A DNA stretch of 64,000 nt from an uncultured Planctomycetota bacterium (GCA_963845755.1 CAWJTV010000005.1:96001-160000), one strand, 5' to 3'; shown: positions 26,686-45,329, counted from the stretch's first letter. Notes: generated by a model from the letters alone, not told the origin. Program-made: numbers and translations.

Positions 26686-28554
26686 ATGCCGAATAATATG
26701 CCAACTCCCGTCCACCGCTCCTGGTTGTCGAGGATCGCTCGGGTCGCCATCCTGGCTGGTGTCGGGAGTCTGGCCGTCGTGGCGTGGCTACTCGGTCCCG
26801 CCTGGTTCCGCATGTTTCAGAATCAGGTTTCTCCCGAGGTCGGCCGCAAGATCGCCATCATTTATCTGAATGGATTGCTCGTCGGCTATGCGCTGGGGCT
26901 GACCGGGTCCGTCGGAGTAATCGGGTCCGTTCTGGTCATTCGCATGAGGACGCGGAGAGAGACGGCCCCGCGGCGTCGCCGACAGGCCCGACTCCTGGCC
27001 CTCGGAGCAACGATCTTGATCAGCCTTCTTGTCCTTGACGCGGGTGCTGCGGCGTGGCGGGCCTGGTTGAGTCGCCGACCCCGGCTGCCCGAGATCAACG
27101 GCAGTCACGCCCCCGCCTCGACGGAGGTACCCATGCATCCGTTCGACGCTGTGGTCCCCGAGCTACCGAGCCAGTTCGCCGCCGGAAAGGTCGGGAGCGC
27201 TGCTGCCTCCGGACCGCTACGAATCCTGGTGATCGGAGAGTCTAGCGCGCGGGGCGTCCCTTATGATCCCTGGTTATCCGTCGGACAGATCGTCGGCTGG
27301 AAGCTCGAGTCGGTCTTCCCCGACCGGCCGATCCAGGTCGAGACCTGGGCCAAGGGTGGGGCCAATCTGGCTCAGATGCACAATCGCCTGGCCGACTTGA
27401 CATATCGTCCCGATGTCCTGATCGTGTATGTCGGCCACAACGAATTCCAATCGCGATACCCCTGGATGCGGGATCCGGACTCCTACTACCTGGACGAGAT
27501 ACGCTCGCTGTATGCGCCGAAATCCCTGACGGGGATACTGCGGTATTCGGCATTTTGCCGACTGGTGATGGAAACATCCGAACGGCAGAGAGTCAGCTTG
27601 CGTCCGCCGCGGCGAGTGACGCGCAGACTGGTCGACCGGCCCGTATGTACGGCGGCGGAAGCCGCGCGAATCCTTGCGGATTTCCGCGCGCGGCTCGACG
27701 CGATCGCGGCCTATTGCGAGACGATCGAGACTCTGGGGATCTTCATCATTCCGGCGTCGAACGACGGTGATTACGACCCGAGCCGTTCGTATCTGTCCCC
27801 CGATACGCCCGTGGCCGAGCGGATGGCCCTTGCGCGGTCGGTCGCGATGGCACGCGCCCGCGAAACGAACGACCCGGCCGCGGCGATGCAGATCGACCGC
27901 GAAGTCGTGGCACGACATCCCGAATTCGCCGAGACGCATTTCCGTCTGGCCCGGCTTCTCGAGCAGCGCGGCGAGTGGGACGAGGCGCGCCGGCATTATG
28001 TCGAAGCGCGCGATCGCGACGGCATGCCCATGCGTTGCCCGGAGGGCTTCCGCCAGGCGTACCGGGACGTGGCCGACAAGCACCCGGCCGTATTACTGGT
28101 TGACGGACCACGCGTCCTCGAAGCGGCCAGCCCGCACGACATCCTGAACGACGGGTTGTTCCACGATGGGCAGCATCCCAACTTGCGCGGCTATGTCGCG
28201 CTGGCTCAAGACCTCCTCGATCAGCTTTGTCGCCGACACGCCCTGGGCTGGCCTGCGGCGGTAGAGGCTCCCCGAGTTGATGCTGAAGCCTGTGCCCGTC
28301 ACTTCGCGCTCGACGCGACCCGCTGGGCGTCGGTCTGCCGTCGCGAATGGTCCTTCTACCACGTGGCCGCCTATACGCGGTACGATCCGAAGTACCGCAA
28401 CGAGAGGGCGGTCGACTACCTCCACGCCGCCGAGGCCATCGAAGCGGGACGGCCACCGGCTGAAGCGGGGATACCCAGCGGCGCCCTGCCTCCACGGCCC
28501 GCACGTCCGCCCCGTGTCATCCCATCGATGCCGGCCGATCAATCCTCCCGGTAA
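26686..28554 (+). CDS. Membrane-anchored SGNH/GDSL-like protein with a TPR segment
   Basis: N-terminal TM helices; 'LVIGESSARG', 'YVGHNEF', DxxH 'HDGQHPN'; TPR-like 'AETHFRLARLLEQRGEWDEARRHY'. Confidence 0.7.
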   Translation: MPNNMPTPVHRSWLSRIARVAILAGVGSLAVVAWLLGPAWFRMFQNQVSPEVGRKIAIIYLNGLLVGYALGLTGSVGVIGSVLVIRMRTRRETAPRRRRQARLLALGATILISLLVLDAGAAAWRAWLSRRPRLPEINGSHAPASTEVPMHPFDAVVPELPSQFAAGKVGSAAASGPLRILVIGESSARGVPYDPWLSVGQIVGWKLESVFPDRPIQVETWAKGGANLAQMHNRLADLTYRPDVLIVYVGHNEFQSRYPWMRDPDSYYLDEIRSLYAPKSLTGILRYSAFCRLVMETSERQRVSLRPPRRVTRRLVDRPVCTAAEAARILADFRARLDAIAAYCETIETLGIFIIPASNDGDYDPSRSYLSPDTPVAERMALARSVAMARARETNDPAAAMQIDREVVARHPEFAETHFRLARLLEQRGEWDEARRHYVEARDRDGMPMRCPEGFRQAYRDVADKHPAVLLVDGPRVLEAASPHDILNDGLFHDGQHPNLRGYVALAQDLLDQLCRRHALGWPAAVEAPRVDAEACARHFALDATRWASVCRREWSFYHVAAYTRYDPKYRNERAVDYLHAAEAIEAGRPPAEAGIPSGALPPRPARPPRVIPSMPADQSSR

Positions 28555-28803: not shown

Positions 28804-29987
28804 TCAGCGGAACAGCTTCGGCGCAAACTCGTTCAAGTAATGGCGCCAGTTGATCCAGGTGTGTCCGCCTCCGCTGATGTGGAGGTCGTGCCGGATGCCG
28901 TGCTTTTGCAACAGCGCCGACAGGCCCTTGGAGCCGTTCAGCAGAAAGTCCTTGTCGCCGACACTGATCGAGAGCAGCTTGTTGGACTCCTTGAGCTGGG
29001 CGGATCCGTTGAAGAAGGATTCATGCTGCTTCTCGAATTCCTCCGGGTTCCCTCGAAAGGTGGCCGCACTCCAGAGGCCGACATAGGCGAACTTGTCTGG
29101 GTGGGTCGTGAGGACTCGTAAGGTCTGGCCCCCCCCCATCGACAGCCCCGCGATCGCCCGGTGCTCGCTTCCGCTCAGCACGCGGTAATGCTTCTCGATC
29201 GAGGGAACGACCTCCTTGAGCAGCTCGTCGATGAATCGATTCTGGGCGGCTTCCATCGCGGCCCGAGCCTCCGGGGACGGGGTTGATCCGGGCGTGATTC
29301 GCGGGAAGTTCGCGGGACGCGGCAGGCTGCCATTGGGCATCACGACGATCATCGGGACCGCTTTGTTGTCGGCGATCAAATTGTCGAGTATAAATCCGGC
29401 GCGGCCGATCGTGCTCCAGCCTGCATCGTCGTCGCCGGCGCCGTGCAGCAAGTAGAAAACCGGGTACTTGTCGCTACTGCCCTCGTAACCTGGTGGCGTA
29501 TAAATGTGCATGCTCCGTAACGAGTTGAGCGTGCCTGAGTGATACCACCTGATGTGGATCTCGCCGTGAGGGACGTCCCGCGTGGCTTCGAATTCTGCGT
29601 CGTCTCCGGGGACCAGGAACATGCTGGACACGCTGGCGATCCCCGGCTTGACCACCGCGTTTTTCGGGTCGAGGGTCCTGACGCCATCGACGACGAAAGA
29701 ATAGCTATAGAAGTCGGGTGTGAGCGGGCCGACGGTGATCGACCATACGCCCTTGTCATCCTTCGACAGCTTGCCGCCCCCGAAGTCGCCGGAAACCGAG
29801 ACCTCGGTGGCCTTCGGAGCGTAGATTCGGAAGGTCACCTTGTGGTCGTCGGCAACCTCCGTCAACTTCAGGGTAGCATTGGGGGTGCGATCTCCCCGAC
29901 CGAACTGGGCCTCGGCCGGGGTGTTCCCAGGCCCGACAGTGCCAGCAGGGCGATCGAACCGATCGAAGACATGCGCGACAGCATCAT
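28804..29987 (-). CDS. Secreted esterase (enterochelin-esterase/CE1-like) with an N-terminal CBM48-like domain; frameshift just after the signal peptide
   Basis: '[10 protein letters not shown]', '[11 protein letters not shown]', nucleophile 'GLSMGG', 'GGHTW'; signal peptide in the adjacent frame from ATG 29987 with AGGAGA RBS. Confidence 0.85.
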
Positions 29988-30228: not shown

Positions 30229-31228
30229 TCAAGCGAGTCGGTTTACCGTCCGGATGGACTTGCGTCGGCGTCTGCGGAACGTCTGTGCGCCTGGGGTCGT
30301 AGTCGCGGGCCGCGGCTCGTAGCAGGGCCAGATCAGGTGGGCCACGGCGTCAGCAGGGGCATTGGCAATTCGGCTTTCAAGCTGCCTGAGATAATCGGCG
30401 ACGGCGATGGACTCGTCTCCGGCTTTGAGCCATCCGAGCGGTTCGATCTCGAGAGCGAACCGGCCTCCCGGTGCATGAGTGCAGAAGACCAGAAAGACTG
30501 GTGAATGGGTCAAGACAGCGAGCTCGGTCCAGATGGCCAGCAGCCGTTGGGGCCGGCCCAGCAGCCGGCCGGGACAGGTATTCGGCCCGTTCCAAGGGAT
30601 GTCGCCGTTCATGTAAATGGCCATACCATCGCGGAGGGCGGCCCGCGCGCGAAGGAGGCGCTCGACGGCCCCGCACGGGGTCAGGTCTCGCCGCAGGAAC
30701 AGCTCGGATTGCGGATGTGGGCCGCCCATGTCAAACCGGCGATTCAGCTCGTGCGAGACGTGCCGAGGGCGTTGGACCAGCAGCCGTAGGGGAACACCAC
30801 GTCGATAGAGCCAGTGAACCCCCGCGATATGGGCCCCAAGGTGGCTACCCACCAGGATCGCACCACGGCCACCATCCAGCGCCGACTGAAGCCGTCCATA
30901 ACCGTGCACGTCGAAGCGGGCCAGAACCTCCGCGTCCGGCTGGCGATCTAGCGGGTAGTCGCGAGCCAGGAACCGGGCGGTGTTCGCCGCAAGGGCCGGC
31001 CAGGTCGCCTCGAGCGGCCAGTCCGCCTCGAGCGCATCCCCGGCGCGCCGCAACGCCGTGCGCAACCGCGCCCGACGTTTCGGCTGCATCGCCAGTCCGA
31101 TGCGACCCAGCAGGCCCAGAATCCGGTCGCCGCGCGATGGCCCTAGCCATCTTCAGCGCGGGCAGGAGCAGGTCGTAAAAGACGAACTTCCAGCTCCAGA
31201 GCCGGCGTAGTCGTCGCCTCACGTGCAC
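30229..31228 (-). CDS. Lysophospholipid/lipid A acyltransferase-like protein (LpxL/AlmG-like); frameshift near 31140
   Basis: 'VHGYGRLQSALDGGRGAILVGSHLG', 'ALRDGMAIYMNGD', 'LESRIANAP...W'; start overlaps the adenylation-enzyme stop. Confidence 0.65.
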
Positions 31229-32815
31229 GCTCCCCCCCCGGCGGCCAGGGATTTCAGGCGTTGATAATCGACCTTATCGGTCGAGGTCATCGGCAGACCG
31301 TCCACAAACCTGATCGTGTCGGGGACCATGTAATGGGGCAAGTACATCGTGCAATGTCGCTTCATGGCGATGATCGACCGCTTCTGGCCTGGCTTCAGTG
31401 CGACGAATGCCTCGATCGAGACTCCGGTCTCCTCCGATCGTGCCACGACTCCGGCTCGGTCCACCCCCTCGTGGCGATAGAATGTTCAACTCGATCTCGC
31501 CCAGCTCAATCCGATAGCCCCGACGCTTGATCATTCGGTCGCGCCGGCCGTGGAACACATAGCAGCCCGAGCCGTCATCGCACACGAGATCTCCGGTGCG
31601 ATACCAGCGCGTGCCGTCTTCGCGCTGGAGGAACGCTGCGTTGCTCAACTCGGGCTGGCCGAAATAACCGCGCATCACGCCGGGCCCGGCGACCACCAAC
31701 TCGCCAATTGTCCCGGGCGCGACGAATTCGCCCTGCGAGTCGACGACTCGAGCGCAGAGCGGCGGACAGACCCGGCCGATGGGGTAAGGCTCGTTCCGGT
31801 CGTCGGGGATCGAGTCCGGGATCGGATAGGCCGTGCAGACGTTCGTCTCGGTCGGGCCGTAGAGGTTCCACATCCTGGTCCGCGGCCAGGCCGCTCGGAG
31901 TCGCCGCAGCGAGGCGATGGGAAAGACCTCGCCGGCAAAGAGGAGGAGCCGCGGCGCTGGGAAACCCGGTAGGTCCACGCGTCCGTGATCGAGCAAAAGC
32001 GCCAGGATCGACGGTGCCGAGTACCAGACGTCTAGCTGTCGATCGGCCATGAACTCGCCTAGCCGACAAGGGTCCTTGCCTAAAGTCTCGCCGACCAACA
32101 CCAGGGTCGCTGCGCTCTGGCAAGACCCAAAGAGGTCGAACACCGAGAGGTCGAAATGCAAGGGAGCGTGCGAGCCGAACCGGTCACCGTCGCGCCAGGG
32201 CCCGAGTGCGCCTCGACACCACTCGAGAAAGGTCAAGGCATTGGCGTGGGAGAGCATGACGCCTTTGGGTTGGCCGGTCGAGCCCGAGGTGAAGAGGATG
32301 TACGCCAGGTCGTCCTCGGTATGCGGAGTAGGAAGCGGCGAGGGGGCGTCGTCCATCATGACCTCTTTCCAGAGTGCATCGCGATGTGCGCTCAGGTCCG
32401 TCGTCATGGTCTCCTCACCGGCGACGATCAAGCGAGGCAGTGGGCCATCGTCCGGCCATGCCCCGCGGAGTGCGGGTGCCAGATGAGCAGCGACGACCAC
32501 CGCCTTGACGCCCGCTGAGGCCAGGATTCGCGCGGCCCTTGGGGCCGGGCTCGCGGGGTCGACCGGCACATAGGCCGCGCCCGCGCGGAGGATCCCGTGC
32601 ACGGCGGCCACGGCCTCGAGCCCCTTGGGCAGCCACAGGCCAACGCGATCTCCGCGACCGGCACCCCAGCGGACCAGTCGCGTTGACACTCGATCCGCCG
32701 CCCAGAGCAATTCTCCGTAACTGAGTACGGCGCCCCGTTCGTCCTCCACAGCCGGACGATCCGGCCGTCGCGCGGCGGCCTCGTCGAGAAGTTGACTTAA
32801 ATGGCGTCCATCCAT
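31219..32815 (-). CDS. Stand-alone amino acid adenylation enzyme (DltA-like); frameshift near 31480
   Basis: 'AYILFTSGSTGQPKGV', 'HFDLSV', 'NLYGPTETNV', 'YRTGD', 'RGYRIELGEIE', 'LPHYMVP...KVDY'. Confidence 0.85.
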
Positions 32816-32954
32816 GAGCACCCTACCTGCCGCGGCCCTGCCGCAACCGAATGGAAGATTCGAGATTTCAGATCTCTCCAGACTTCAAAAACGATCACTC
32901 TTGCAATCTAAAGGCCAGAGTTCGCGACCCCGCCCGATCCACTGCGAGCGGATG

Positions 32955-34266
32955 TTACGGGCTCAGAATCGGTCCGCCGCTCTCGGAGAGCCGTGAATCG
33001 CCCTCGTTACTACGCTCGGCAGCCTCCGTATCGGAGTGTACGGGGCCGATCGGTCCGTGTCTTGTTGCCTCGCCAGCCGCGGCCTGGCTTTCGGGTCTCA
33101 ACTCCTGGAGACCGGAGGTCTCCGGCGGGAACAGCAGCCGGGACAATGACGCGTCCGCAGCGACGGCCTGGGCCAGGGCAACGAAAAGTCGCTCGTGTCC
33201 CACCGCGTTGGGATGGTCGTCCCAGGCGGCGATCTCGAGCTTCGCCGGGTCATAGGGGTCGAATGTATTTGAAAGGTCGAAGACGGAGATCGCATGGTGG
33301 GCCGCCAGGGCCTTCAGGCGCGAGACCGGTTCGGCCCGGATCTCCGGCGCGTTTCTTTGCCCACTCGCGGAATGATCACCATGACGAGGGGTATGCCCGC
33401 CGAGCGGCATTCCGCTGAGAGCATACCGATCGTCCGATCGTACAAGCCCCAGTAATAGGGCCTTAACATCGCCTTGATCCGATCCTTGTGGATCAACTCC
33501 CGTTGGTCATTCAGTCGAAGGTCACCGGCGGTCACGCCGGCCTCGCTGATCGCCTGCCTCAGGAAAGGGTACCGCAGGTTGACGCCATTTCGGAGCATTT
33601 CGAGCAGGTGGATCTCCATCAGACGGACATCGAGCGTCGTGGCCGAGTAGATGACCAGGTCGGGACAGAACGCGAGTCCGTTGCGGTGAAGTGTCTCGAA
33701 CCTCTGGAGTGGGCTGTAAGCCGCGACGGCGAAATTCAAAACCTCGAATCGGCGCGACCGGAGCGATCCTCGGCCGGTCGAGACGGCATCCAGCCAGTCC
33801 TGCAGCCGATTGGCGTAGGTATCCTGGTATCTCACACCCCATCCCATATCCATCGACGCGCCCAGCACGGCGATCCGGAATGTGCCCTCGGGCTTCTCGA
33901 GCGTAACCTCGCCGTCGTGCATTCCGAACGAATTCGTCACGAACGGCTGACCGCAGAGCGTCCGTTGGACTCGGGGCTTGAGCTCGAATTGGAGGAAGTC
34001 GTCATCGAGGTAACGGACGACGCCGGCTTCCTGAAAGCCGATCCAGCCCTCCGGCCTGCCGACGTTGGACCCGCCGAGGATCTCCTCGTAGTAGCCGACC
34101 ACGTGGGCCTCTCGTTCGCCGAGTCGCGGTCCAGTGGATCGCGCGTATCGAGGAGGGCGTGGATTCCGGACCAGTCGGCCGGCCAGGAGACCAGGCCCAC
34201 GATCAGTAGCACCAGGGGATGAAGTAGTCCGGCCCGGGCTGCTGAGCAGATCTGTTGATAAATCAT
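32955..34266 (-). CDS. SGNH/GDSL hydrolase-fold protein; frameshifts near 34110 and 33355
   Basis: 'TNSFGMHD', 'RIAVLGASMDMGWGV', 'EVLNFAVAAY', 'WDDHPNAVGH'; TM N-terminus in ORF 33937..34266. Confidence 0.75.
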
Positions 34267-35450
34267 CGTGACTTGACTCCTGGGAGGGCGATCGAGATGT
34301 TAAGGGCCGTGTTTCGGGTTGCCTTGGCAACGGGGCCTTCGCCACAGAGATGCCGCAACTCAGGTAGCTCGCTCAGGGCTGTGTCGAGGCGGGCGGCGAG
34401 GCAGCGATGGCCCGAGAGATTCGGGTGGAAGTCGTCGGGCTCGACGGCCAGCGCGGACGGTTCGAAGCCATTGAAGGCATCACTCGCGTCGACGATGTGA
34501 GTGAATCCAGCGGCCTGCGCCGCCTCCTGGAGTGCTCGATGGCCGGCCGGCTCGCTGGGACGCCCGACGCGGGGGATCAGAACCCAGATGATCGGTACAT
34601 TTCGAGCTCGGCAGTCATCCGCTATGGCGCGATAGACGCCTGCCAGGATTTCCTGATGGCGCGGTTGCAGCACGCGCTTGTAACGCTCTGGATTCCAGAG
34701 AGGCTCGACTCCAGCCGATGTCAAGACCCCCCGGTACAGAGGCGAGTCGAACCCGAGTCCCCGGGCCAAGACATAGCGGAGCCTCCGCTCGTCCCAGCCG
34801 ATGTCGGCCTCCGTCGATTCGCAGATCACCAGGTCGGGCTGCATCGGCCAGCCGACCTGGCTGAAGTGATGCCAACGCTGGCCGGGCGCATGCCCGGGAA
34901 CGGAAGTGTTAATGATTTCGATTGCCGGGCCGCCCGCTCGTCGCGAACGGGCGTCCCATTCGCGCTCGAGGATCGACTCAAACCGCTGCTCGACGTTGAC
35001 TCCCCAGCCCACGCCGATTGAGTCGCCCACTAGGGCAATGCGGAACGTTCCGGCCGGCTTTTCGATCGCGTAGTCTCGATCGCGCATCCCCTGCGCGTTG
35101 GAGCGCCACTCCACGCCCCATCGCTGGACCGTATCGCCCGTCCTCAAGACGACCTCACGCAGATCGTCGACTCGCACGACCAGGGGCGCCGAGTCCACCG
35201 GGACCGAGAAGGTGCCGCGAGAACCGGGTTGTCGGCGAAGGGCCGGAAGGTCGCCCAGCTCATTGAGCCGGCGACCGGCATTAATCACTTGCTCATAGTA
35301 TCCGCGCTCGATTCGTGAGGCGTCAGCCCGGTTGAACAGGCCGCTTCTGAGGCTGGACCGTAGCCGCGCGGGCCCGCGCCCGGCGAGATCGTCCGGGATC
35401 AATCCGAACGCCAGGATCGCGAGCGTCGCGAACAATTGGCGGCCCATCAT
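34263..35450 (-). CDS. SGNH/GDSL hydrolase-fold protein
   Basis: 'SNAQGMRD', 'RIALVGDSIGVGWGV', 'EIINTSVPGH', 'DDFHPNLSGH'. Confidence 0.8.
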   Translation of the reverse strand: MMGRQLFATLAILAFGLIPDDLAGRGPARLRSSLRSGLFNRADASRIERGYYEQVINAGRRLNELGDLPALRRQPGSRGTFSVPVDSAPLVVRVDDLREVVLRTGDTVQRWGVEWRSNAQGMRDRDYAIEKPAGTFRIALVGDSIGVGWGVNVEQRFESILEREWDARSRRAGGPAIEIINTSVPGHAPGQRWHHFSQVGWPMQPDLVICESTEADIGWDERRLRYVLARGLGFDSPLYRGVLTSAGVEPLWNPERYKRVLQPRHQEILAGVYRAIADDCRARNVPIIWVLIPRVGRPSEPAGHRALQEAAQAAGFTHIVDASDAFNGFEPSALAVEPDDFHPNLSGHRCLAARLDTALSELPELRHLCGEGPVAKATRNTALNISIALPGVKSR

Positions 35451-35454
35451 CCCG

Positions 35455-36869
35455 TCATGATCCATAGAAACCTCGGTGAAGCATGTCCAGCCATGCCGAC
35501 AGGCTGGGGCTCGACCAGAGCGACCAGAGGACGGCGATGGTCATGAAGATCCCGGCGACCCTCACGACACGCACGGCCAGTTCGCGCGGCGCCACGATGT
35601 CGTGCCCGTGTCTCCGGAGGCGCGCCCCGTTCCTGCACGGCTGCGCCGGGCGTCGAACTGGACATTCAGCATTACCAGGATGCCGAGTGTGCCCCAGAAG
35701 AGGGCGTCGGGCACCGTGAAGCCCCAGCTCCCGACCAGCCAGTACCTCTGGTAGGCGTGCAATATCCATGTGGCCAGGAATACCGTGACGATACCCATTG
35801 CGAGTGCCGCCGGTTGCGGCCATCGCTTCAGCCGGAACACCACCGGATTGAAGAACACCCTCACCATGAAATCCTTCCAGTAGATGTTGATTCGCCGCCA
35901 ATAGTCGGTGAAGCTCGTCGCCAGCAGGTAGTGGTGGTGGGTCGCCGGGAGGCGGTATCCGAAGAGGTGGAGCATCCCACAGGCCATGTGAAACTGGCCT
36001 GAGACCTGCAAATAAAGCAGGTAATTGCCGACGATATGGCCCGCCAGTCCGACGAGATCGTGCACATCGCCGGACTGGATCGAATATCGGTTATAGAGCA
36101 GGCGATAGCCCAGAAGATGCACCGTCCCCTGGAACATCATCGCCAGCCCACGCCGCTGGATCGCATGGATGTCGTCAACAAAGTACCCTCGCTGCATCGT
36201 CCGGTAATCGATTACGGGAAAGAGCTGGAAGCAGAAGTTTGGCAGGATGAAGAAATAGCCCAGCGTGTCGGCCAGCGGTTCGGGCGCCGTCGAGTGCTTG
36301 AGTTCATAGAGATAAATAATTATCCGAAACATGAACATGGATGCCACAATGGGCCAGACATTGTCGGGGATGCCGAAGGAGGAAGCTCCGGGTCGGGCCA
36401 GGATCGTGACCGCCGCGATCGCGGCGCAGGCTGACGCGCGAGCTGCCCACGGGATGCGAAGGTAGCAGACGCCGATCAGGACCGCGGCCATCGCCAGTAC
36501 GATGGCGGTGGTCCACGTGCCGCCGACCGAGATCAGGCCGACGATCGAGACCGCGACGAGACAGGGCTTCTTCCAGCGGAATGGAGCTAGGTAGTGTACC
36601 GGAAATGCCAGGAGCGCGATGAGGGCCAGGTTCTGAAAGGTCCGACCCTGATAGGGGCGTTCCTCGAGATGATAAACCTTGAATACCGCCACGAGCAGCG
36701 CGAGGTGAATCAGGTTACGCAGGAACGGGCGGAGGCTCCGACGGCATGACTCGGGCTCATCCGGGTACAGGGCCGAGAAACGCCGGCGCCGGCGAGGCTT
36801 CGATACGGGCACGTACTGATGGTGCGGCGCCCGCTTCGTTGCGACCGTCGTTCGAAATCCTGGCCCCAT
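35455..36869 (-). CDS. MBOAT-family membrane-bound O-acyltransferase (DltB/AlgI-like); frameshift near 35590
   Basis: Multi-TM; 'YLLATSFTDYWRRINIYWKDF' and His in 'ATWILHAYQ'; last TM in ORF 35455..35901. Confidence 0.8.
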
Positions 36870-36935
36870 GCGCCGGTCTCCCTCGGCTCATCTGCAACGG
36901 CAAGGGCGTCGACTTCCTCCGCGTCCTTAGCCCGA

Positions 36936-36987
36936 TCGCGCCGGCCCCGATACTCGCGCCGGCCCCATACGCCCTCGCGCCGGCCCC
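36936..36987. repeat. Three copies of the 13-mer TCGCGCCGGCCCC
   Basis: Copies at 36936, 36954 and 36975, just upstream of the MBOAT gene. Confidence 0.7.
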
Positions 36988-37129
36988 CGCCGTTTTGTAG
37001 ACTGATCACGCTGGGAGCCGGTCCCGGCCGATGGACCTGATCCTCACCTTGTCTACGTGCTCACACCGACGTGTGATCTTCAGGAGCAGCGGTCATACGG
37101 GACGACGGGATCGCAGAAGGTGGGAAGGT

Positions 37130-37381
37130 CGGGGTGCCTGGAAACGGCGGGGACCGGTTCCTCCGTGAACCGGTGAGTTCCCCGCTGCGGCCGCGCCATC
37201 CGTGTTTCGCCTGATATCAATCCTTGTATCGGTTTGCCGCCAGGGAACTGCGGGGACCGGCTCCTCCGTGAACCGGTGAGATTCCCCGCTGCGGCCGCGC
37301 CATCCTTGATACGCATTTATTTCTTTCTTTCAATCTTTGTTTTCGCGGATGTCGCTCGCCGGTTGTCCTCCTTCAGCAACG
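37130..37381 (-). ncRNA. Candidate CsrA/RsmA-binding RNA (CsrB-like sRNA or 5' leader) with a duplicated ~55-bp hairpin unit
   Basis: Five CANGGA motifs on the minus strand; two in hairpins ACCGGTTC-ACGGAG-GA(A/G)CCGGT; direct repeat of ~37148-37201 at ~37250-37305; no credible ORF. Confidence 0.5.
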
Positions 37382-37387
37382 ATCGCG

Positions 37388-37416
37388 ATTTAACCGAGAT
37401 CCCCCGGCGCTGTCAA
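37388..37416 (-). promoter_or_regulatory. Putative sigma70-type promoter
   Basis: Minus strand TTGACA (37416-37411), 17 nt spacer, TTAAAT (37393-37388), pointing into the GGA-repeat region. Confidence 0.45.
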
Positions 37417-37675: not shown

Positions 37676-38587
37676 GAGCGCTCGGAAAAAATGAATCCAC
37701 TGGCACGCTGTCTGCTCTTGAGTCCTTCGGCGAGTGATCTCCCGAACCAAGGAGGACCACCATGAAACCCCTTGTCTCCGATGCGCCTGTGGAACTCCGC
37801 CCTGGAGCCCTTGCTGCCACCCCCGCCTCCGCGCCGCTTCCGCTTCCCGGGACGCAAATCCCTGGACTACCGCAAGATCCTCACCGGCATCTTGTTCGTG
37901 CTCAAGACCGGCATCGCCTGGGACGACTTGCCCGCCGACCTCGGCTGCGGCTGCGGCAAGACCTGCCGGTCCTACCTGCAGGCGTGGCAGCAGGCCGGTG
38001 TCTGGCGCCAGTTGCACGCCGTCTTGCTGGCCGAGCTCAACGGCGATGACGCGATCGACTGGGAGCGGGCGCTGATCGACGCCTCCTTCGCCAAGGCCCC
38101 GGAAGGGGGCGAGGATACCGGCCCGAATCCGACGGACCGGAGCAAATCCGGCAGCAAGCACCACGTGATGACCGACGCCCAAGGCGTGCCGCTGGCGGCG
38201 ACGGTGACCGCCGCCAACGTCCCCGAGATCACCCAGGTCTTCACGACGCTCGACGACATGCCGCCGGTGGGCGGCAAGCCGGGGCCGAAGCGGCAGAAGC
38301 CCGACCGCTTGCAGGGGGATCGGGGCTACGACTCGGAACCGGTGCGGCAGGGTTTGCGCGGCCGGGGGACCACGCCGGTGCTGGCGGCCCGCAATACGGA
38401 GCACGGCAGCGGTTTGGGCAAGTCCCGCTGGTACGTAGAGCGGACCATCGCGTGGCTGCACTCCTTCGGCCGGCTGCGCCGCCGTTTGGATCGGCTCACC
38501 GAGATTCAAGACGCGTTCCTCAAGTTAGCATGTTCCTTGATCTGTTTGAGGCTCCTGGGCCAGTGAACTCATTTTTTCCGAGCGCTC
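37676..38587 (+). mobile_element. IS5-family insertion sequence, 912 bp
   Basis: Perfect 19-bp IRs GAGCGCTCGGAAAAAATGA (37676-37694 / 38569-38587); TTA target duplication (37673-37675 / 38588-38590). Confidence 0.95.
37762..38566 (+). CDS. IS5-family DDE transposase; frameshift near the 5' end
   Basis: 'GILFVLKTGIAWDDLP', 'IDAS', 'GDRGYDS', 'RWYVERTIAWL'; ATG 37762 with GGAGG RBS is out of frame with ORF 37772..38566. Confidence 0.9.
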
Positions 38588-39312: not shown

Positions 39313-39585
39313 CCCGAATGCCGACGAAGCGACGCGGCGCCAGGCCGGTTTCCATCTGGACACGCGCGTCGATCGGCGGTATCGTTCGGCCCACACGTCT
39401 CAACTACCAACCTAAGGGTTGACGCGATACAAGACAAACGCGGCGGCTGGATGGCCGTCGCGCCGGGGTGGGCGTCTGGCATGGAAGCTGGGCGTGCCAC
39501 CGACCGGCACGTCGCGATCCGGCGCGTTCGCAGTCCGGTTCTCTCCGGTCCGTCGCTTTTCATGGGACTTTGTGGAGGAGCAAGG

Positions 39586-41841
39586 ATGCCTCCCACGCCG
39601 TCGAGCCCGCTGGGATACCTCCGGGGATTGTTCCTGCCGATCACGATCATCGGTGCGATCCTCGTGTTCGTGGTGCCCATTCCTGCGCCTTTGCTCGACG
39701 TGCTGCTCTCGGCCAACCTGACCGTGGCCGTCGTGGTGCTCTTGACGACCCTCTCGATCCAGTCGCCTCAGGAGTTTAGTGCATTTCCCACCATCTTGTT
39801 GACGACCACGCTGACTCGACTGGTCTTGAACGTCGCAACGACCCGGCTTGTGCTGACCCGGGCCGGCGTGGACCAGCTCGATGCGGCGGGTGGTGTGATC
39901 AGAGCGTTCGGGGAATTCGTGGCGGGAGACCAGGTGATCGTCGGTGTGATCCTGTTTTCGATCCTGGTTGTGATCCAGTTCGTCGTGATCACTCGGGGGG
40001 CGACCCGTATCAGCGAAGTCGCGGCGCGATTCATGCTCGATGGGCTGCCGGGCCGTCAGATGGCGATTGACTCCGATCTGCACGCCGGCCTAATCGACCA
40101 ACACGAGGCCCACCGGCGTCGCGAGGAAGTCTATCGTCAGTCGGATTTCTTCGGCGCGATGGACGGAGCCGGCAAGTTCGTGCGCGGCGACGCCGTGGCC
40201 GGGGTGGTGATTCTGCTGGTAAACATCGCCGCTGGGCTCTACCTGGGGATGGTCAACTACGGGATGAGTGCGAGCGACGCGGTCAACGTCTTCACGAAGT
40301 TGACGATCGGCGATGGGCTGGTCAGTCAAGTACCGGCTTTCTTGATCTCGCTGGCCTCCGGCCTGATCGTCACCCGATCTTCGTCCTCGACCGACCTGAA
40401 TCGCGACGTGATCGAACAATTGTTCACGCGGCCCGGAGTGCTGGGAGTGGCGGCCGTATTCGTGGGACTAATGGCCTTGACTCCGCTGCCCAAGCTACCA
40501 CTACTGGCTCTCGGCGGTGGCCTCGGTGCCGCCGCGCTGTACCTGGGTTCTCGTCGGGCCGATGATACGGTCGAACGGCCGCACGGGGATGCCGGTGTGA
40601 GTCCGGGAGCGGAGACGAGTTCGCCCCGATTCCGTCCCGACGAGAAGGCGGGTGCGACTCTCTCGACTCGGGGCAAGTCGGCCTTGCCGGCGATGAGAGC
40701 CGACGGGGAGTCGGCCGAGAGCGCCTCGGAACGGATGGAGGACTTGCTCCACGTCAATCCACTTGAAATGGAGATCGGGTTCAGGCTCATCGGCCTGGCC
40801 GACCCGACTCGAGGCGGCGACCTGCTCGGCCGGCTCAAGACGGTGCGCCAGCGCGTTGCGCGGGAAATGGGCTTGATCGTGCCCCAGGTGAGGATTCACG
40901 ACGAGATTGGCTTGCCTCCCAACGAATACCGGGTGAAGATCCGAGGAAATCAGGTCGGGCAAGGAATTGCCTACGCCGGGCGACTGTTGGCGGTACCTCC
41001 GGCCGGACTCGTGACGCGGCCTGACGGTCGCGATGGCGTGGACCCGGTCACGGGTCAACCGGCGGTCTGGATTCACGCCGACGGACGCGAGGTGGCCGAG
41101 CTTGCAGGCTGCCGCGTCCTGGATGCCGCGACGGTCGTCGCCGGCCATTTCGGCGAGATCGTCGCCAATCACGCCGACGAGCTCCTCACCCGCGAGCAAG
41201 TCGAGCGGCTGCTCGAGCGGGTCCGAACCACTGCCCCGACGTTGGTCGGAGAAGTTGTGCCCGGTCTGCTCCGCGCCGGCGAGCTTCAGCGGGTCTTGCA
41301 GAACCTGTTAAGGGAGCGAGTCAGCATTCGCGACCTCGAGACAATCCTCGAGACATTGGCCGTTCATGCCGGCAGGACCAAGGATGTCGACGTCCTGACC
41401 GAGGAAGTTCGCCGCAGTCTGGCCCGTCAGATCACTGAGACGTATCGCGGTCCGGACGGGAGACTCCGGATCGTCTCCCTGGATGGTCCGCTGGAGGCGC
41501 GATTGGAAGCGGCAGGGCGCCAGGCCGAGACTCGTCCGGCCGAGGCCTTGGGTGAGGATACGGTCCGGAGCATCATCCGCGCCGTCGCATTGGCTGTTGA
41601 AGCCCTCGTCGACAACGGCTATCCCCCCGTGATCGTCACTGCACCTGCCGCCCGCGCCGTCCTCAAGGATTTGACTCGCGCCGACTTGCCGCGGCTGGTC
41701 GTCCTGGGCCAACGCGAGATCCCCCGCGATACGTCGGTCGAGATCCTCGGCAGTGTCGTGGAGGAGGAACCCGAAGTCGTGACCACTTACACCACGTCTT
41801 CGTCCCTGAATCCTCTCGTCCTCGAGTCCTCAAGTCCGTGA
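39586..41841 (+). CDS. flhA: Flagellar export apparatus protein FlhA
   Basis: 'FSAFPTILL', 'RISEVAARFMLDGLPGRQMAID', 'FFGAMDGAGKFVRGDA', 'LLRERVSIRDL'. Confidence 0.95.
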   Translation: MPPTPSSPLGYLRGLFLPITIIGAILVFVVPIPAPLLDVLLSANLTVAVVVLLTTLSIQSPQEFSAFPTILLTTTLTRLVLNVATTRLVLTRAGVDQLDAAGGVIRAFGEFVAGDQVIVGVILFSILVVIQFVVITRGATRISEVAARFMLDGLPGRQMAIDSDLHAGLIDQHEAHRRREEVYRQSDFFGAMDGAGKFVRGDAVAGVVILLVNIAAGLYLGMVNYGMSASDAVNVFTKLTIGDGLVSQVPAFLISLASGLIVTRSSSSTDLNRDVIEQLFTRPGVLGVAAVFVGLMALTPLPKLPLLALGGGLGAAALYLGSRRADDTVERPHGDAGVSPGAETSSPRFRPDEKAGATLSTRGKSALPAMRADGESAESASERMEDLLHVNPLEMEIGFRLIGLADPTRGGDLLGRLKTVRQRVAREMGLIVPQVRIHDEIGLPPNEYRVKIRGNQVGQGIAYAGRLLAVPPAGLVTRPDGRDGVDPVTGQPAVWIHADGREVAELAGCRVLDAATVVAGHFGEIVANHADELLTREQVERLLERVRTTAPTLVGEVVPGLLRAGELQRVLQNLLRERVSIRDLETILETLAVHAGRTKDVDVLTEEVRRSLARQITETYRGPDGRLRIVSLDGPLEARLEAAGRQAETRPAEALGEDTVRSIIRAVALAVEALVDNGYPPVIVTAPAARAVLKDLTRADLPRLVVLGQREIPRDTSVEILGSVVEEEPEVVTTYTTSSSLNPLVLESSSP

Positions 41842-41970
41842 GTCTTTGGTCGGAATGCGGGACAGCCAGGTATCCGGCGGCTAATGAGTCGGAATCCGGT
41901 CCCTGAAATAAGTCGTGAAGTTTCGTGACGAGGCTCAAGGTGTCAAGAACTCGAGTGTCAAAAGGACTTA

Positions 41971-43140
41971 ATGAATCAAATGCGGTCAAAAACGTACCGG
42001 GCGAAGACTATGAAGGAGGCTTTGACGCGAGTGCGTCGGGACCTCGGCGGTGACGCCGTGATCCTCGCGGCGCGGGAAGTTCGGCGCCGCCGGCTCTTCG
42101 GCCTGGGGCCTCGCGCCGAGGTGGAGGTCACGGCGGCGGATCGCATGCCCGAGGACGTGACAGTCGAAGGCATGGCGATGCGTACCGGCACCATAACGAG
42201 GGTCAAGGAGGTGTCGGGGGTTTCGGCCCCGGCCGCCCCCTCACCGGCCTTGCAGGCGCGGTTCGGGGAGCAGCTCAGCCGACTGCACGCCATGGTGGAA
42301 ACCCTGAGCCGGCAGGGGCGGATCGACCACTTGCTACCTGATCTCCCGGGCGAGCTGGTCCCCATTTACTCCCAGTTGATTGAGGCTGACATCCCGGAGG
42401 TGCTGACGCGGCGGCTCGTGCGACATGTGGCCGAGAACCTCGAGCCCGATCAGTTCCGGTACGCCGAGTCTATCCGCGGATCCCTGGGCGAGGCGGTGGC
42501 GCAGTGCATTCCGGTCGCGCCGCCGATCCAGTCGGTCGTCGGCACCCGCCGCATCGTGGCCCTCGTCGGCCCCACCGGTGTGGGAAAGACCACGACCGTG
42601 GCGAAACTGGCTGCCAATTTCAAATTGGCCCACGGCGTCCGCGTGGGACTGATCACCGTTGACACCTACCGAATCGCCGCGGTCGAGCAGCTCAAGACGT
42701 ATGCCGAGATCATTGACCTGCCGCTGGCGGTCGTCAACGACCCGTCGGAGATGACTCGTGCACTCGACGAGCTCGGCAGCGTGGATCTGGTCTTTATCGA
42801 CACCGCCGGACGGAGCCCGCGCGATGAGGTCAAGATCCGCGAGCTCTCCGAGTTCCTCCTCCGGGCTCGACCGGACGAGGTCCACCTGGTCTTGAGCGCC
42901 GTCGCTGGCCACAGGAGCCTCCAGGCTGCCGTCGAGCGATTCGCCCTGGTCCAGGTCGATCGCTTGATCCTGACCAAGCTCGACGAAGCCGACAGCCTGG
43001 GAGGCGTTTTAGCCGTCCTGGCTCTGTCCAGTTAACCCGTAAGCTATTTGACCACGGGCCAGGCTGTCCCCGATGACATCGAGCCGGCCGACCGAATGCG
43101 TCTCGCCCGGCTCATCCTCAAACAGGAAGATCTGGCATGA
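41971..43140 (+). CDS. flhF: Flagellar SRP-type GTPase FlhF; in-frame TAA at 43033-43035
   Basis: 'GPTGVGKTTTVAKLAA', 'DTYRIAAVEQL', 'DTAGRS', 'TKLDE'; conserved 'PVSYLTTGQAVPDDIE' continues in frame after the stop. Confidence 0.9.
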
Positions 43141-43247
43141 ACGAGCGGGTTCCATGGAAATCCTGTCATGGAGAATAGTTTCTATGGGGGTCGGGCCCTC
43201 TTGGCAGAGAGAACCAGGTCACAATTCGGCATTCGAGGTTTCAGGAG

Positions 43248-44222
43248 ATGCTCATGTCCGACCAGGCAGATAGGCTCAGGCAGCTCGTGGTGGCGAGTCG
43301 GGCGGCCCCGGAGTTGTCGCCAGTGACCACGCTGGACGAGGAGGAGCCGCAGGGGGGCGTGATCTCGCTCGCGGAGGCTCCCGTTTCGATTAGCTCGTCT
43401 CGCTCCCTGCTGTTCACCAGCGGCAAAGGGGGCGTGGGGACCTCGAACCTGGTCTTGAACCTGGCAATCGCGATGGGTGAAATGGGGCAGCGTGTCCTGC
43501 TGATCGATGCCGACCTGGGGTTGGCCAACCTGGATCTCCTGTGCGGACTGGCGCCGCGATACGACCTCGGCGACGTGCTGGCCGGACGTTGCCCACTCGG
43601 TGATGCGGTGATGACGGGTCCTGGCGGGATCCGGATCGTGCCGGGTGCCCACGCGATCCGGACCGGTGCGGAGGTTCTGGAGGACGGCCCGGCGCGGTTA
43701 GTGGCGGAGTTGGGAGAGCTCGAGTCGGAGTCCGACTTCGTCCTGGTGGACGCCGGGTCGGGACTGGGACCGGGTGTGCTGTTGCTTGCTGGGGCGGCCG
43801 ACCAGGCGGTGATCGTGACCACGCCCGAGCCGACATCGATCGCCGATGCACACGCGGCGATCGGCCGGTTCCGCCGCGTTGCGTCCCGCCCGAAGATCCG
43901 GGTCGTGGTCAATCAGGTCAGGTCGAGTCTGGAAGGGTCCGAGGTGCTCGACCGACTCGTTGCCTCGAGCCGTCAGTTCCTGGGCGCGGTGGTATCTCCG
44001 CTGGGACCGGGCGCGGTACACGCCGATCCTCACGTCCCGCTGGCCGTCCGCAACCGTCGGCCTTTCCTCATCGTGCACCCTGGTTCGCCCGCTTCGCGCG
44101 GGGTCCGACGACTGGGACGCGCCTTGGTTCGAGAACACCAGAGTCTGCATCGTCGCCGTCGCTCCGGATTCTTCGCGGCGCTGGCCGCCCGCTGGGCACT
44201 GAGTCTCGTGGCCACAGGGTAA
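43248..44222 (+). CDS. flhG: MinD/ParA-family ATPase FlhG (FleN)
   Basis: 'SGKGGVGTSN', 'IDADLGLANLD', 'VTTPEPTSIADA'; between flhF and fliA. Confidence 0.88.
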   Translation: MLMSDQADRLRQLVVASRAAPELSPVTTLDEEEPQGGVISLAEAPVSISSSRSLLFTSGKGGVGTSNLVLNLAIAMGEMGQRVLLIDADLGLANLDLLCGLAPRYDLGDVLAGRCPLGDAVMTGPGGIRIVPGAHAIRTGAEVLEDGPARLVAELGELESESDFVLVDAGSGLGPGVLLLAGAADQAVIVTTPEPTSIADAHAAIGRFRRVASRPKIRVVVNQVRSSLEGSEVLDRLVASSRQFLGAVVSPLGPGAVHADPHVPLAVRNRRPFLIVHPGSPASRGVRRLGRALVREHQSLHRRRRSGFFAALAARWALSLVATG

Positions 44223-44308
44223 GACGTTTCCCTAACAGGAATCGTGGCGTATCAGGATGCGGGATGGCAGGGTGGATCGGATTTTTCGGGTTGTTGTGAT
44301 GGTATCAT

Positions 44309-44337
44309 TCAAGCCGGATGAACGGCTGGGCCGATAC
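44309..44337 (+). promoter_or_regulatory. Possible sigma28-type promoter upstream of fliA
   Basis: TCAAG-N16-GCCGATAC; the -10 matches GCCGATA but the spacer is longer than the usual consensus. Confidence 0.35.
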
Positions 44338-44397
44338 AGGACTGGGTGGAAGTTCCTTGGATGGCGAGGGGAGAAGGGGCCGGACGCGGCTCTCGTC

Positions 44398-44492
44398 GTT
44401 GCTAGTCGCTAGTTCCTAGTTGCTAGCGCAGACGAGACGGATCCATCGGATCTGTTCACAGGCTAGCAACTCGCAACCGGCAACTCGCAACT
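44398..44492. repeat. Inverted array of heptamer repeats (GTTGCTA / TAGCAAC)
   Basis: gttgcta-gtcgcta-gttccta-gttgcta ... tagcaac-tcgcaac-cggcaac-tcgcaac. Confidence 0.7.
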
Positions 44493-44506
44493 CGGAGTGG
44501 CCCTGA

Positions 44507-44548
44507 GCACAGGATGTGCGTCCCTCTCGCGCAGCCGACATGGAGGTC
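44507..44548 (+). promoter_or_regulatory. Two putative CsrA-binding hairpins in the fliA leader, one covering the SD
   Basis: GCAC-AGGAT-GTGC (44507-44519) and GAC-ATGGAG-GTC (44537-44548), 4 nt before ATG 44553. Confidence 0.5.
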
Positions 44549-44552
44549 AGGA

Positions 44553-45329
44553 ATGTCAACTAAGGTGGATGTGGATGTAACCGAACTCTGGCGGGAGTTC
44601 AAGGAACACCCCACCACGGAATTACGCAACCAGTTGGTCGAACGCTACTTACCCTTGGTCAAGTACAATGCCGAACGCATCTGGCAACGCCTCCCCGAGG
44701 GGGTCGATCTCGACGACCTGATCTCCGCCGGGGTCTTCGGGCTAATGGATGCGATCGACGCCTTCGACCTGACCCGAGGTGTTAAGTTCGAGACCTACTG
44801 TGTGCCTCGCATCCGCGGCGCGATGCTCGACGAGCTGCGCACGATGGACTGGGTCCCCAGGCTGGTCCGCTCCAAGGCCACCAAGATGGACGAGGCGCGT
44901 AAAGAGCTCGAGGCCCGACACGGCCGGCCTCCCACGGACATCGAGCTCGCCGATCACCTCGGCCTGCCGATGGAAGAATACGAGAAGATGGCGATGGACG
45001 CCAATGCCGTCGGCTTGATCAGCCTGAACAAGAAATGGTACGAAACCGACAGCTACAAGGATGTCCGCGAGATCGACATCCTCGAGGACAAGAAGGGCGA
45101 GGATCCCACCCGACGGCTCCAGCGCAAGGACCTAATGCGCATGGTCACCAAGGGGCTGAGCCGAAACGAACGCCTCATCATTATCCTCTACTATTATGAA
45201 GAATTGACGATGAAGGAGATCGGCGCGACCCTCGACCTGAGCGAGTCGCGGGTATCCCAGATGCACTCGTCGATCATCCAGCGTCTCCAATCGCAGCTCG
45301 CTTCCCGCCGTCCCGAATTCGGGACCTGA
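44553..45329 (+). CDS. fliA: RNA polymerase sigma-28 factor FliA/WhiG
   Basis: 'DDLISAGVFGLMDAIDAFD', 'RIRGAMLDELRTMDWVPR', 'TMKEIGATLDLSESRVSQMH'. Confidence 0.95.
   Translation: MSTKVDVDVTELWREFKEHPTTELRNQLVERYLPLVKYNAERIWQRLPEGVDLDDLISAGVFGLMDAIDAFDLTRGVKFETYCVPRIRGAMLDELRTMDWVPRLVRSKATKMDEARKELEARHGRPPTDIELADHLGLPMEEYEKMAMDANAVGLISLNKKWYETDSYKDVREIDILEDKKGEDPTRRLQRKDLMRMVTKGLSRNERLIIILYYYEELTMKEIGATLDLSESRVSQMHSSIIQRLQSQLASRRPEFGT

Follow-up and report, generated by a model that had tools for sequence, protein, structure and literature searches.

A stretch of 64,000 nucleotides from an uncultured Planctomycetota bacterium (the window; C5:96001-160000 of genome G000, 14.27 Mb in 49 contigs, 87.9% complete) carries a five-gene operon on its minus strand, from position 36869 down to 30229. 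The genes encode a membrane-bound O-acyltransferase (MBOAT), two SGNH-fold proteins (SGNH1 and SGNH2), a stand-alone adenylation enzyme and an LpxL-like acyltransferase. Comparison with related loci suggested, with about an even chance of being correct, that this operon is the membrane half of a carrier-dependent system of envelope acylation, the other parts of which are scattered over the genome and the acyl group of which is derived from proline; judged from the sequences, this group is probably prolyl, dehydroprolyl or pyrrole-2-carbonyl. The direct observations are the gene content, the families and folds of the proteins, their conservation, the orthology of the unlinked parts and the residues of the substrate pocket. 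The five genes are as follows:

36869..35455, minus strand: MBOAT-like membrane acyltransferase, about 471 aa; two frames, with a 1-nt frameshift at about 35586-35592
35465..34263, minus strand: SGNH1, SGNH/GDSL fold with an N-terminal transmembrane anchor, 400 aa, intact
34266..32955, minus strand: SGNH2, membrane-anchored SGNH paralogue; three frames, with 1-nt frameshifts at about 34108-34145 and about 33353-33400
32821..31219, minus strand: stand-alone adenylation enzyme, PltF-like, about 523 aa; 1-nt frameshift at about 31486
31228..30229, minus strand: LpxL-family (Lip_A_acyltrans) acyltransferase, about 322-333 aa; 1-nt frameshift at about 31151-31179

Open reading frame calls in the window placed the five genes in the same orientation, overlapping or abutting, with the start codon of SGNH2 overlapping the stop codon of SGNH1 (ATGA), and tblastn agreed with these calls. 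An earlier account of this DNA, made from the sequence alone (the sequence-only reading), had likewise described five co-oriented, mostly abutting genes with a Dlt/Alm-like architecture of MBOAT, SGNH, adenylation enzyme and LpxL-family protein, and the families and folds described below bear out that architecture. In the relative G021 all five genes are intact and packed so tightly that no space is left for an extra gene. Source names place the window's family in the Isosphaeraceae, including Singulisphaera and Aquisphaera. Among 41 genomes around the window's, the sample to which all counts of 24 and 16 genomes refer, the MBOAT was found in 23 of the 24 Isosphaeraceae genomes and in none of the 16 genomes of eight sister families. 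In a synteny sample of 20 loci, taken from 17 relatives' genomes together with a second locus of G000, all five genes stood in the same order at 13 loci, that is, in 13 of the 17 relatives' genomes, in agreement with the co-conservation in relatives on which the sequence-only reading depended. The other loci comprised two without SGNH1, one partial locus, one MBOAT alone and three second copies holding only MBOAT and SGNH1.

The evidence that the operon works with a carrier protein came from its relatives outside the Isosphaeraceae. A profile of the MBOAT, searched against 301 phylum-wide genomes, matched 7 genomes of four other families with 286-409 bits, and six outgroup loci from those seven genomes were examined. 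At five of the six, the MBOAT is fused to or followed by a single SGNH domain or protein and is accompanied by an adenylation enzyme (47-48% identity), a carrier and an acyl-CoA-dehydrogenase-type protein (ACAD). The carrier, an 87-residue PP-binding protein with the serine motif GILDS, is encoded between the MBOAT(-SGNH) and the adenylation gene, and at all five loci the ACAD gene immediately precedes the MBOAT or immediately follows the adenylation gene. The sixth locus, in genome G193, consists of an MBOAT-SGNH fusion only, and neither carrier nor ACAD was found in that genome.

Both additional proteins of the outgroup operons have orthologues in the Isosphaeraceae. Searched against five Isosphaeraceae genomes, the outgroup carrier matched strongly just once per genome (44-49% identity, E 1e-19 to 1e-23), in each case away from the operon; the match in the window's genome, at C49:26715-26954, belongs to an intact gene for 83 residues (C49:26715-26957). 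In the reverse direction, the Isosphaeraceae carrier found the in-operon carriers as its best matches (46-53%, E of about 1e-21 to 1e-23), the next match having E >2e-3. The carrier was present in 23/24 Isosphaeraceae genomes and, as a weak match, in 1/16 others. For the ACAD, each Isosphaeraceae genome gave a single match of 48-56% identity, followed by next-best matches of 32-33%; over both directions the values were 41-56% against next-best matches of 32-38%, and the reverse searches led back to the operon-linked genes. The ACAD of the window's genome is an intact open frame of 392 aa at C33:480315-481469, and the family was found in 23/24 Isosphaeraceae genomes and 0/16 others. The carrier and ACAD genes lie 1-12 kb apart in G002, G005, G013, G014 and G021. 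Thus the suggestion of the sequence-only reading that the missing carrier is encoded elsewhere was upheld by reciprocal best hits in 5/5 genomes, and the linked PP-binding gene for which it advised a search does exist in all five complete outgroup operons, although not in those of the Isosphaeraceae. A six-frame scan of five genomes with PF00550 had revealed no carrier near the operon, and the C49 carrier was not among the 29 matches listed for G000; the missing gene was therefore traceable through the operon's simpler relatives where the genome-wide Pfam scan had failed. Other small acyl carrier protein (ACP) loci, with rows of FabA-ACP-FabA or of ketosynthase, ACP, LpxL-like protein, phosphatase, aminotransferase and LptF/G, were set aside as candidates for the partner carrier, each having partners of its own.

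The nearest characterised relatives of the ACAD point to the acyl group. Its best PDB match was the prolyl-ACP dehydrogenase AnaB (4irn) with 407.6 bits, compared with 318 bits for the best generic ACAD, and it matched an L-prolyl-peptidyl-carrier-protein dehydrogenase (5zw0) with 291 bits. Among the NCBIfam families, PigA (NF053553, 423.3 bits) and RedW (NF045652, 380.3 bits) ranked first and second, ahead of the others by about 120 bits.

The adenylation enzyme is an adenylation (A) domain of the nonribosomal peptide synthetase type: the 515-aa piece from the window scored 347.7 bits against TIGR01733 (cut-off 317.4), 283.9 bits against AMP-binding and 38.4 bits against AMP-binding_C, and both Pfam domains were also found in the intact orthologue. 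It has no carrier domain, and its best 120 homologues (514-610 aa) hold PF00501 and PF13193 only. The DltA equivalog model TIGR01734 gave 233.1 bits, far below its cut-off of 559.85. Over the whole protein, the PDB sequence matches were the second A domain of LgrA (386 bits), a peptide synthetase (336), PltF (325) and DltA (231), and when the pocket region was searched alone, PltF was the best solved relative (118 bits). At the nine pocket positions, the enzyme has D-L-F-S-L-A-L-V-C and PltF (6o6e) has D-L-L-S-L-A-L-V-C, so that eight of nine residues are equal; a second proline ligase, 7thn, shares seven, and Bacillus cereus DltA (3dhv; D-L-M-S-L-C-T-V-A) only five. The code DLFSLALVCK, which includes the A10 lysine, occurs in 126 of 133 family members, while PltF's own residues, with leucine, occur in two of the 133 and in the outgroup enzyme of L073. 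These results suggested that the enzyme is probably a PltF-type activator of L-proline, and a DltA-like (D-alanine) or AlmE-like (glycine) substrate is not supported by the pocket. The motif FDLSV, on which the likeness to DltA had been based, is indeed present; since PltF and DltA both have it, it is no mark of DltA. Proteins of Singulisphaera and Aquisphaera are among the homologues of this enzyme, and the Isosphaeraceae have cultured members; a published study includes a gene knock-out in Singulisphaera acidiphila (passages of PMC12493201).

An unlikely alternative is that an unmodified aminoacyl group, proline or another small amino acid, is transferred to an envelope polymer and a lipid, with the ACAD serving some other pathway. 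The Isosphaeraceae operon itself holds no oxidase, the pocket of the adenylation enzyme keeps the Asp that binds the alpha-amino group, and both Dlt and AlmEFG move unmodified aminoacyl groups, according in part to passages of PMC12148441. This plain aminoacylation, which the sequence-only reading had proposed, is nevertheless doubtful in view of the ACAD, which is in or beside the operon at 5/5 outgroup loci, is kept as a single orthologue in 23/24 Isosphaeraceae and 0/16 sister genomes, often beside the carrier, and has nearest characterised relatives that all act on prolyl-carrier proteins.

The MBOAT is divergent in sequence. Its homologues, taken as the best 120 of 1250 family proteins found at E <= 0.001 among 8000 scored candidates, are 471-475 aa long and 59-84% identical. 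At E up to 0.01-0.1, neither the window pieces nor the intact orthologue matched any family of Pfam (PF03062 / PF13813 included) or of NCBIfam, and a profile of 22 members gave no match among PDB sequences at E up to 10. An AlphaFold2 (AF2) model (predicted local distance difference test, pLDDT, 70; pTM 0.69) was compared with solved structures. In Foldseek, ranks 1-13 were all MBOATs (DltB, PORCN, HHAT and LPCAT3; E 2.4e-5 to 1e-2), with DltB first (E 2.4e-5). In VIA, rows 1-22 all belonged to the MBOAT superfamily and the first unrelated row had Z 4.4; PORCN reached Z 14.3 (root-mean-square deviation 5.5, 264 residues aligned) and DltB Z 12.4 (12.8, 303 aligned), followed by a second DltB (11.7), LPCAT3 (11.5), HHAT (10.7) and then DGAT/ACAT. 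The predicted fold thus identifies the protein as a divergent MBOAT. All 22 members have N329 (in DYWRRINIYW) and H372 (in WxLHAYQ), which stand 43 residues apart; the MBOAT signature is a conserved Asn/Asp followed some 30-50 residues on by an invariant catalytic His. Beyond the DltB-like core, the model has extra C-terminal helices at 424-449 and 453-464, and the stretch LWSLWSSPS in the extra C-terminal helix is invariant. The protein in the window ends in GFYGS, as the sequence-only reading had pointed out, and a terminal Tyr (RGxYGS) is found in 12 of 22 members, the others having H, R, Q, L or another end. In MBOAT-SGNH systems of the DltX/PatA type, the acyl shuttle is marked by a C-terminal FxYxxF with an invariant Tyr (passages of PMC12148441) or by a DltX microprotein. 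The terminal Tyr was rejected as an acyl shuttle, being present in only these 12 members and not within an FxYxxF motif.

Second copies of MBOAT and SGNH1, without the adenylation enzyme, SGNH2 and LpxL-like genes, lie in the window's genome (C20:308950-311572; L047), in G021 (L034) and in G001 (L042). The second MBOAT of G021 is 92% identical to the MBOAT of the operon, and G001 holds another, degraded MBOAT copy 1.5 kb from a carrier paralogue.

SGNH1 passed the Lipase_GDSL_2 profile (PF13472; 35.6 bits, cut-off 32.9), whereas the C-terminal piece of SGNH2 scored 17.9 bits, below the cut-off, and no Pfam family matched SGNH2 above its cut-off in either the window pieces or the intact orthologue. 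Of the profile matches named in the sequence-only reading, those to AMP-binding, Lip_A_acyltrans and, for SGNH1, Lipase_GDSL_2 were obtained, while the MBOAT gave none and SGNH2 only a match below the cut-off. The block-I Ser (GDSI / G.S.DMGWGV) is retained in both SGNH proteins, as is an invariant D-x-H-P-N: in SGNH1, G147-D148-S149 and D345-x-H347 are invariant in 13/13 sequences, and in SGNH2 the Ser and D-D-H-P-N are conserved in 15 orthologues. The Ser had been correctly recognised from the sequence; the second motif is DxH rather than the DxxH given there. The AF2 model of SGNH1 (pLDDT 79) consists of an N-terminal helix (6-22), a poorly predicted linker and the SGNH domain, and its best 50 Foldseek rows were SGNH esterases. 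DltD, PatB and AlgX/J were not among these 50 rows, which is no proof of differing folds. No Pfam or NCBIfam match to the DltD family was obtained for the SGNH proteins, and their best NCBIfam match was a weak one to the Leptospira LA_2490 GDSL family.

The last gene product matched Lip_A_acyltrans (PF03279) with 37.6 bits as the window piece and with 45.2 bits (cut-off 22.3; profile positions 7-285 of 295) as the intact orthologue. A profile of 14 orthologues found the mycobacterial phosphatidylinositol mannoside acyltransferase PatA (5f2t; E 2.7e-7) in the PDB, and the invariant H125, which belongs to the motif H-L-G-[GA]-H-[ILV] (H-x-G-x-H...HW), aligns with the His of HSGNWD in that structure. 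The expectation that the last gene is acyltransferase-like was thus confirmed, with its catalytic His aligned. In the five outgroup genomes no orthologue of this gene was found, only paralogue matches of 21-37 bits; the LpxL-like gene and the second SGNH gene, together with the dispersal of the other parts, are therefore specific to the Isosphaeraceae version. Lip_A_acyltrans enzymes normally take acyl-ACP as their donor. An ESMFold2 complex of the LpxL-like protein with the carrier scored 0.64, compared with 0.00 for the best of three controls; 116 of 157 solved complexes had attained this mark, and so had 2 of 215 mismatched pairs, counts that are rough for the custom alignments used here. 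The runs agreed in at least 96% of contacts, and the partners had pLDDT values of at least 87. The modelled interface includes the invariant L37-D38-S39 and the following helix of the carrier, as well as residues 180-192 of the enzyme, among them R186 and R191, both nearly invariant. It is plausible from this model that the LpxL-like protein binds the carrier at its phosphopantetheine serine.

Three LpxL-like paralogues in related genomes share H-x-G-x-H, and two of them are encoded directly behind ACP genes. At L052 (G021:C4) and L057 (G016:C45), a conserved row of genes encodes a ketosynthase, a small ACP, a Lip_A_acyltrans paralogue with H-x-G-x-H, a tyrosine-phosphatase-like protein, a class I/II aminotransferase and LptF/G, which looks like another carrier-fed lipid pathway.

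For the system as a whole, we infer the order of the steps, the substrate, the oxidation, the acceptors and the use of this carrier, in preference to the housekeeping ACP, by the LpxL-like enzyme. L-proline would be adenylated by the PltF-like enzyme and loaded onto the C49 carrier, and the prolyl-carrier would be oxidised by the unlinked ACAD on C33 to a dehydroprolyl or pyrrole-2-carbonyl group. The MBOAT would then collect the carrier-bound acyl group on the cytoplasmic side, pass it across the inner membrane and hand it to SGNH1/SGNH2 by a shuttle other than the FxYxxF tyrosine, and the two SGNH proteins would acylate one or two periplasmic acceptors, which may be a glycan, peptidoglycan or lipopolysaccharide. 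At the cytoplasmic face, the LpxL-like enzyme may esterify a lipid from the same acyl-carrier, as AlmG does with glycyl-AlmF.

The proposed system shares parts with several known ones. The organism, a diderm, is not known to have teichoic acids. With the Dlt system of Firmicutes (DltA, DltC, DltB, DltX and DltD), which D-alanylates teichoic acid, it has in common a stand-alone adenylation enzyme, a small carrier, an MBOAT, a membrane-anchored SGNH-type protein, the FDLSV motif and an MBOAT model whose first Foldseek match is DltB. It differs in the pocket (five of nine residues) and in the Ala before GE, where DltA has Cys in the stretch FCGE; it has no DltX-like gene or FxYxxF motif, its carrier is unlinked, and it further includes an oxidase, a second SGNH protein and an LpxL-like enzyme. 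The triads PltF/PltL/PltE, PigI/PigG/PigA and RedM/RedO/RedW, along with AnaB, likewise combine PltF-like adenylation, an AnaB/PigA/RedW-like ACAD and a small stand-alone carrier, whereas the set described here has no linked polyketide or peptide assembly line and is coupled to envelope acyltransferases. AnaB removes two electrons and pyrrole formation requires the removal of four; the ACAD sequence is compatible with either. AlmEFG, which glycylates lipid A in Vibrio cholerae, also combines adenylation enzyme and carrier with a Lip_A_acyltrans-family acyltransferase, a likeness drawn from description and superfamily; the common superfamily and the passing complex score with the carrier suggest that AlmG and the LpxL-like enzyme may act alike. 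In contrast, the pocket here points to proline, not glycine, and an MBOAT/SGNH route is added. PatA/PatB, AlgI/J/X and WssH/I resemble the present system in an MBOAT with extra C-terminal helices and a separate periplasmic SGNH partner, but they use acetyl-CoA and an invariant FxYxxF Tyr (both from passages of PMC12148441), whereas the MBOAT here co-occurs with an adenylation enzyme and a carrier.

The kind of system is thus already known, namely carrier-dependent MBOAT-SGNH acylation, and the LpxL-like exit, the second SGNH protein and the dispersed parts set the Isosphaeraceae version apart. As far as we know, MBOAT-SGNH envelope acylation has so far involved acetyl groups and D-alanine. Our search of full texts turned up no paper in which MBOAT/SGNH proteins move a prolyl or pyrrole acyl group onto envelope polymers, and a proline-derived acyl group would, if true, be a new envelope chemistry. 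The additional LpxL-like enzyme suggests two outlets for one activated acyl group, the first across the membrane and the second onto a lipid, which would join the logic of Dlt with that of AlmEFG.

The genomic position of the carrier raised a different explanation. In the Isosphaeraceae, the carrier stands at the end of a three-gene unit, behind a 251-aa gene and a type I phosphodiesterase-family gene (PF01663); the 251-aa gene belongs to no known family, and no homologues of it or of the phosphodiesterase-family gene were found in the outgroup operon windows. In G000, where the neighbourhood spans C49:21804-28055 (L086), and in G002, G020 and G021, this unit stands tail to tail with three genes, a GH3 gene and the two that precede it, which by order and family are putatively olsI-olsG-olsH, the ornithine-lipid operon established by experiment in Singulisphaera acidiphila (passages of PMC12493201). 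Moreover, the carrier scored 143.6 bits, above the cut-off of 130, against NF052616, 'ornithine lipid biosynthesis acyl carrier protein' (ACP_for_OlsHI), while the outgroup in-operon carrier remained below it (107.4 bits). Accordingly, the operon might hold two unrelated jobs, an MBOAT/SGNH set that O-acetylates a glycan (or acylates it in another way from acyl-CoA), like PatA/PatB or AlgI/J/X, and an adenylation enzyme that makes an amino lipid with the LpxL-like protein, the carrier being the ACP of OlsH/OlsI. We consider this quite unlikely. It accords with the JGI names of the MBOAT homologues, AlgI or DltB, with the MBOAT-SGNH1 pairs that lack an adenylation enzyme in three genomes (L034, L042 and L047), with the one sister-family genome that has an MBOAT-SGNH fusion and neither carrier nor ACAD, and with the acyl donor of OlsI, which passages of PMC12493201 leave open. 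On the other hand, the carrier gene lies between the MBOAT(-SGNH) and adenylation genes at 5/5 outgroup loci, and a GH3/OlsH homologue was found in none of those five genomes (87-94% complete), although the same GH3 query does find orthologues in Isosphaeraceae genomes. OlsH needs neither ACP nor CoA (passages of PMC12493201), and a review names no ACP in the passages concerned (PMC12971839). The carrier is co-transcribed with the phosphodiesterase-family gene, convergent to the ols genes and outside their operon.

The OlsH/OlsG/OlsI system of Singulisphaera acidiphila belongs to the same bacterial family, and the protein named by NF052616 lies beside the ols genes in G000, G002, G020 and G021, but carrier orthologues are found in MBOAT/adenylation/ACAD operons of genomes in which no OlsH homologue was found. 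Because of these in-operon outgroup carriers, the lack of an ACP requirement in OlsH and the absence of GH3 matches there, we take the carrier to belong first to the adenylation/dehydrogenase/MBOAT system, with a second role in ornithine-lipid synthesis being possible. The name NF052616 may have been given from the neighbourhood alone, and the outgroup operons are a concrete reason to re-examine this curated name.

A more specific form of the proline-derived acylation proposed here, doubtful in its full detail, would have the Isosphaeraceae place dehydroprolyl or pyrrole-2-carbonyl groups on a periplasmic glycan through MBOAT/SGNH and on a membrane lipid, lipid A or ornithine lipid, through the LpxL-like enzyme, both from one carrier, with a CsrA-type switch in the leader tying the operon to flagellar genes and the swimmer stage. 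The leader in question is the following:

36870-37416, minus strand: operon 5' leader of about 550 nt, containing two direct repeat units of about 100 nt that are rich in GGA

In the direct repeats (37136-37314), the two units are spaced by about 103 nt and each has a hairpin-like core that contains GGA; they lie between a TTGACA/TAAAT-like promoter and the MBOAT start. By blastn, the core was found 100-500 nt upstream of the MBOAT start at 7 of the 20 loci, and no Rfam family matched the leader.

Several observations weigh against the carrier-dependent, proline-derived system. The ACAD scored below the equivalog cut-offs of both leading families (PigA, 423.3 against 500; RedW, 380.3 against 650), and carrier and ACAD are unlinked to the operon in the Isosphaeraceae. 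The substrate call depends on nine aligned pocket residues, one of them mismatched (F for L). The MBOAT model is only middling (pLDDT 70), the FxYxxF shuttle motif is absent from the 22 MBOAT members, and no DltX-like gene was seen in the operon. In the LpxL-like protein, the HX4D/E dyad was not found, the acid at +5 being missing; the invariant D205 (GDIPW) could, by analogy, play the role that D192 has in LpxM (passages of PMC6286764). The passing complex score may reflect a general binding of ACPs by the LpxL family and implies no choice of the carrier over AcpP. The score of the carrier against NF052616 and its tail-to-tail position with olsI-olsG-olsH in at least four genomes belong here as well. 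The Isosphaeraceae genomes are kin, so that the phyletic counts amount to about one event or gain. Finally, the deposited sequence breaks the reading frame of four of the five genes.

These four genes carry five single-base frameshifts in total, SGNH1 alone being in one frame, and the sites were mapped by tblastn with intact orthologues and by inspection of the sequence context. Five frameshifts within 6.6 kb, compared with one in 3.7 kb of rpoB, an IS5 transposase 900 nt upstream and a congener genome in which the operon is also in pieces could indicate a decaying pseudogene cluster with real frameshifts beside the IS5 element. We regard such decay as very unlikely. The essential rpoB gene is itself split into two frames in both assemblies, the window's genome (G000 C34:79366-83015) and the congener G001, whereas the 99%-complete relative G021 has an unbroken copy; the frame pieces of the operon are each 59-87% identical to their orthologues, with no internal stops or deletions; completeness of 87.9% in 49 contigs fits an indel-prone long-read assembly; and the unlinked carrier and ACAD are intact. 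In a relative's short-read contigs from one public run, there is, in agreement with the orthologues, one base fewer than in the window at 31486 and one base more behind 34145, each seen in a single contig of depth below 5 from a relative that is not the same strain. Among the matches listed, no near-identical contig of runs X1 and X2 spanned the five frameshift sites; three sequencing runs matched with shares of 0.05-0.12, and none of those listed was RNA. Taken together, the split rpoB, the completeness and contig number of the assembly and the indels in the relative's contigs led us to read the five frameshifts as most likely assembly errors. The split rpoB is a sign of genome-wide indel errors, and any gene call in genome G000 is affected.

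The surroundings of the operon differ from those in its relatives. The IS5-family transposase gene (37772-38566; NF033580, 211 bits) lies about 900 nt upstream, followed by a flagellar block (39451-45329) in which FlhA (FHIPEP, 769 bits) is encoded together with an FlhF-like SRP54 GTPase, a MinD/FlhG-like ATPase and a sigma-70 family factor. The divergent neighbours in relatives are a PMT_2/ArnT-like GT-C glycosyltransferase gene (12/20 loci), then fliF and fliG, and the differing upstream neighbours suggest a rearrangement in the window's genome. Downstream, 26686-28554 encodes a 622-aa protein with a weak GDSL_2 match and TPR repeats, and 28804-29865 a feruloyl-esterase-like CBM48-esterase (158 bits), which stands beside the operon only in the congener.

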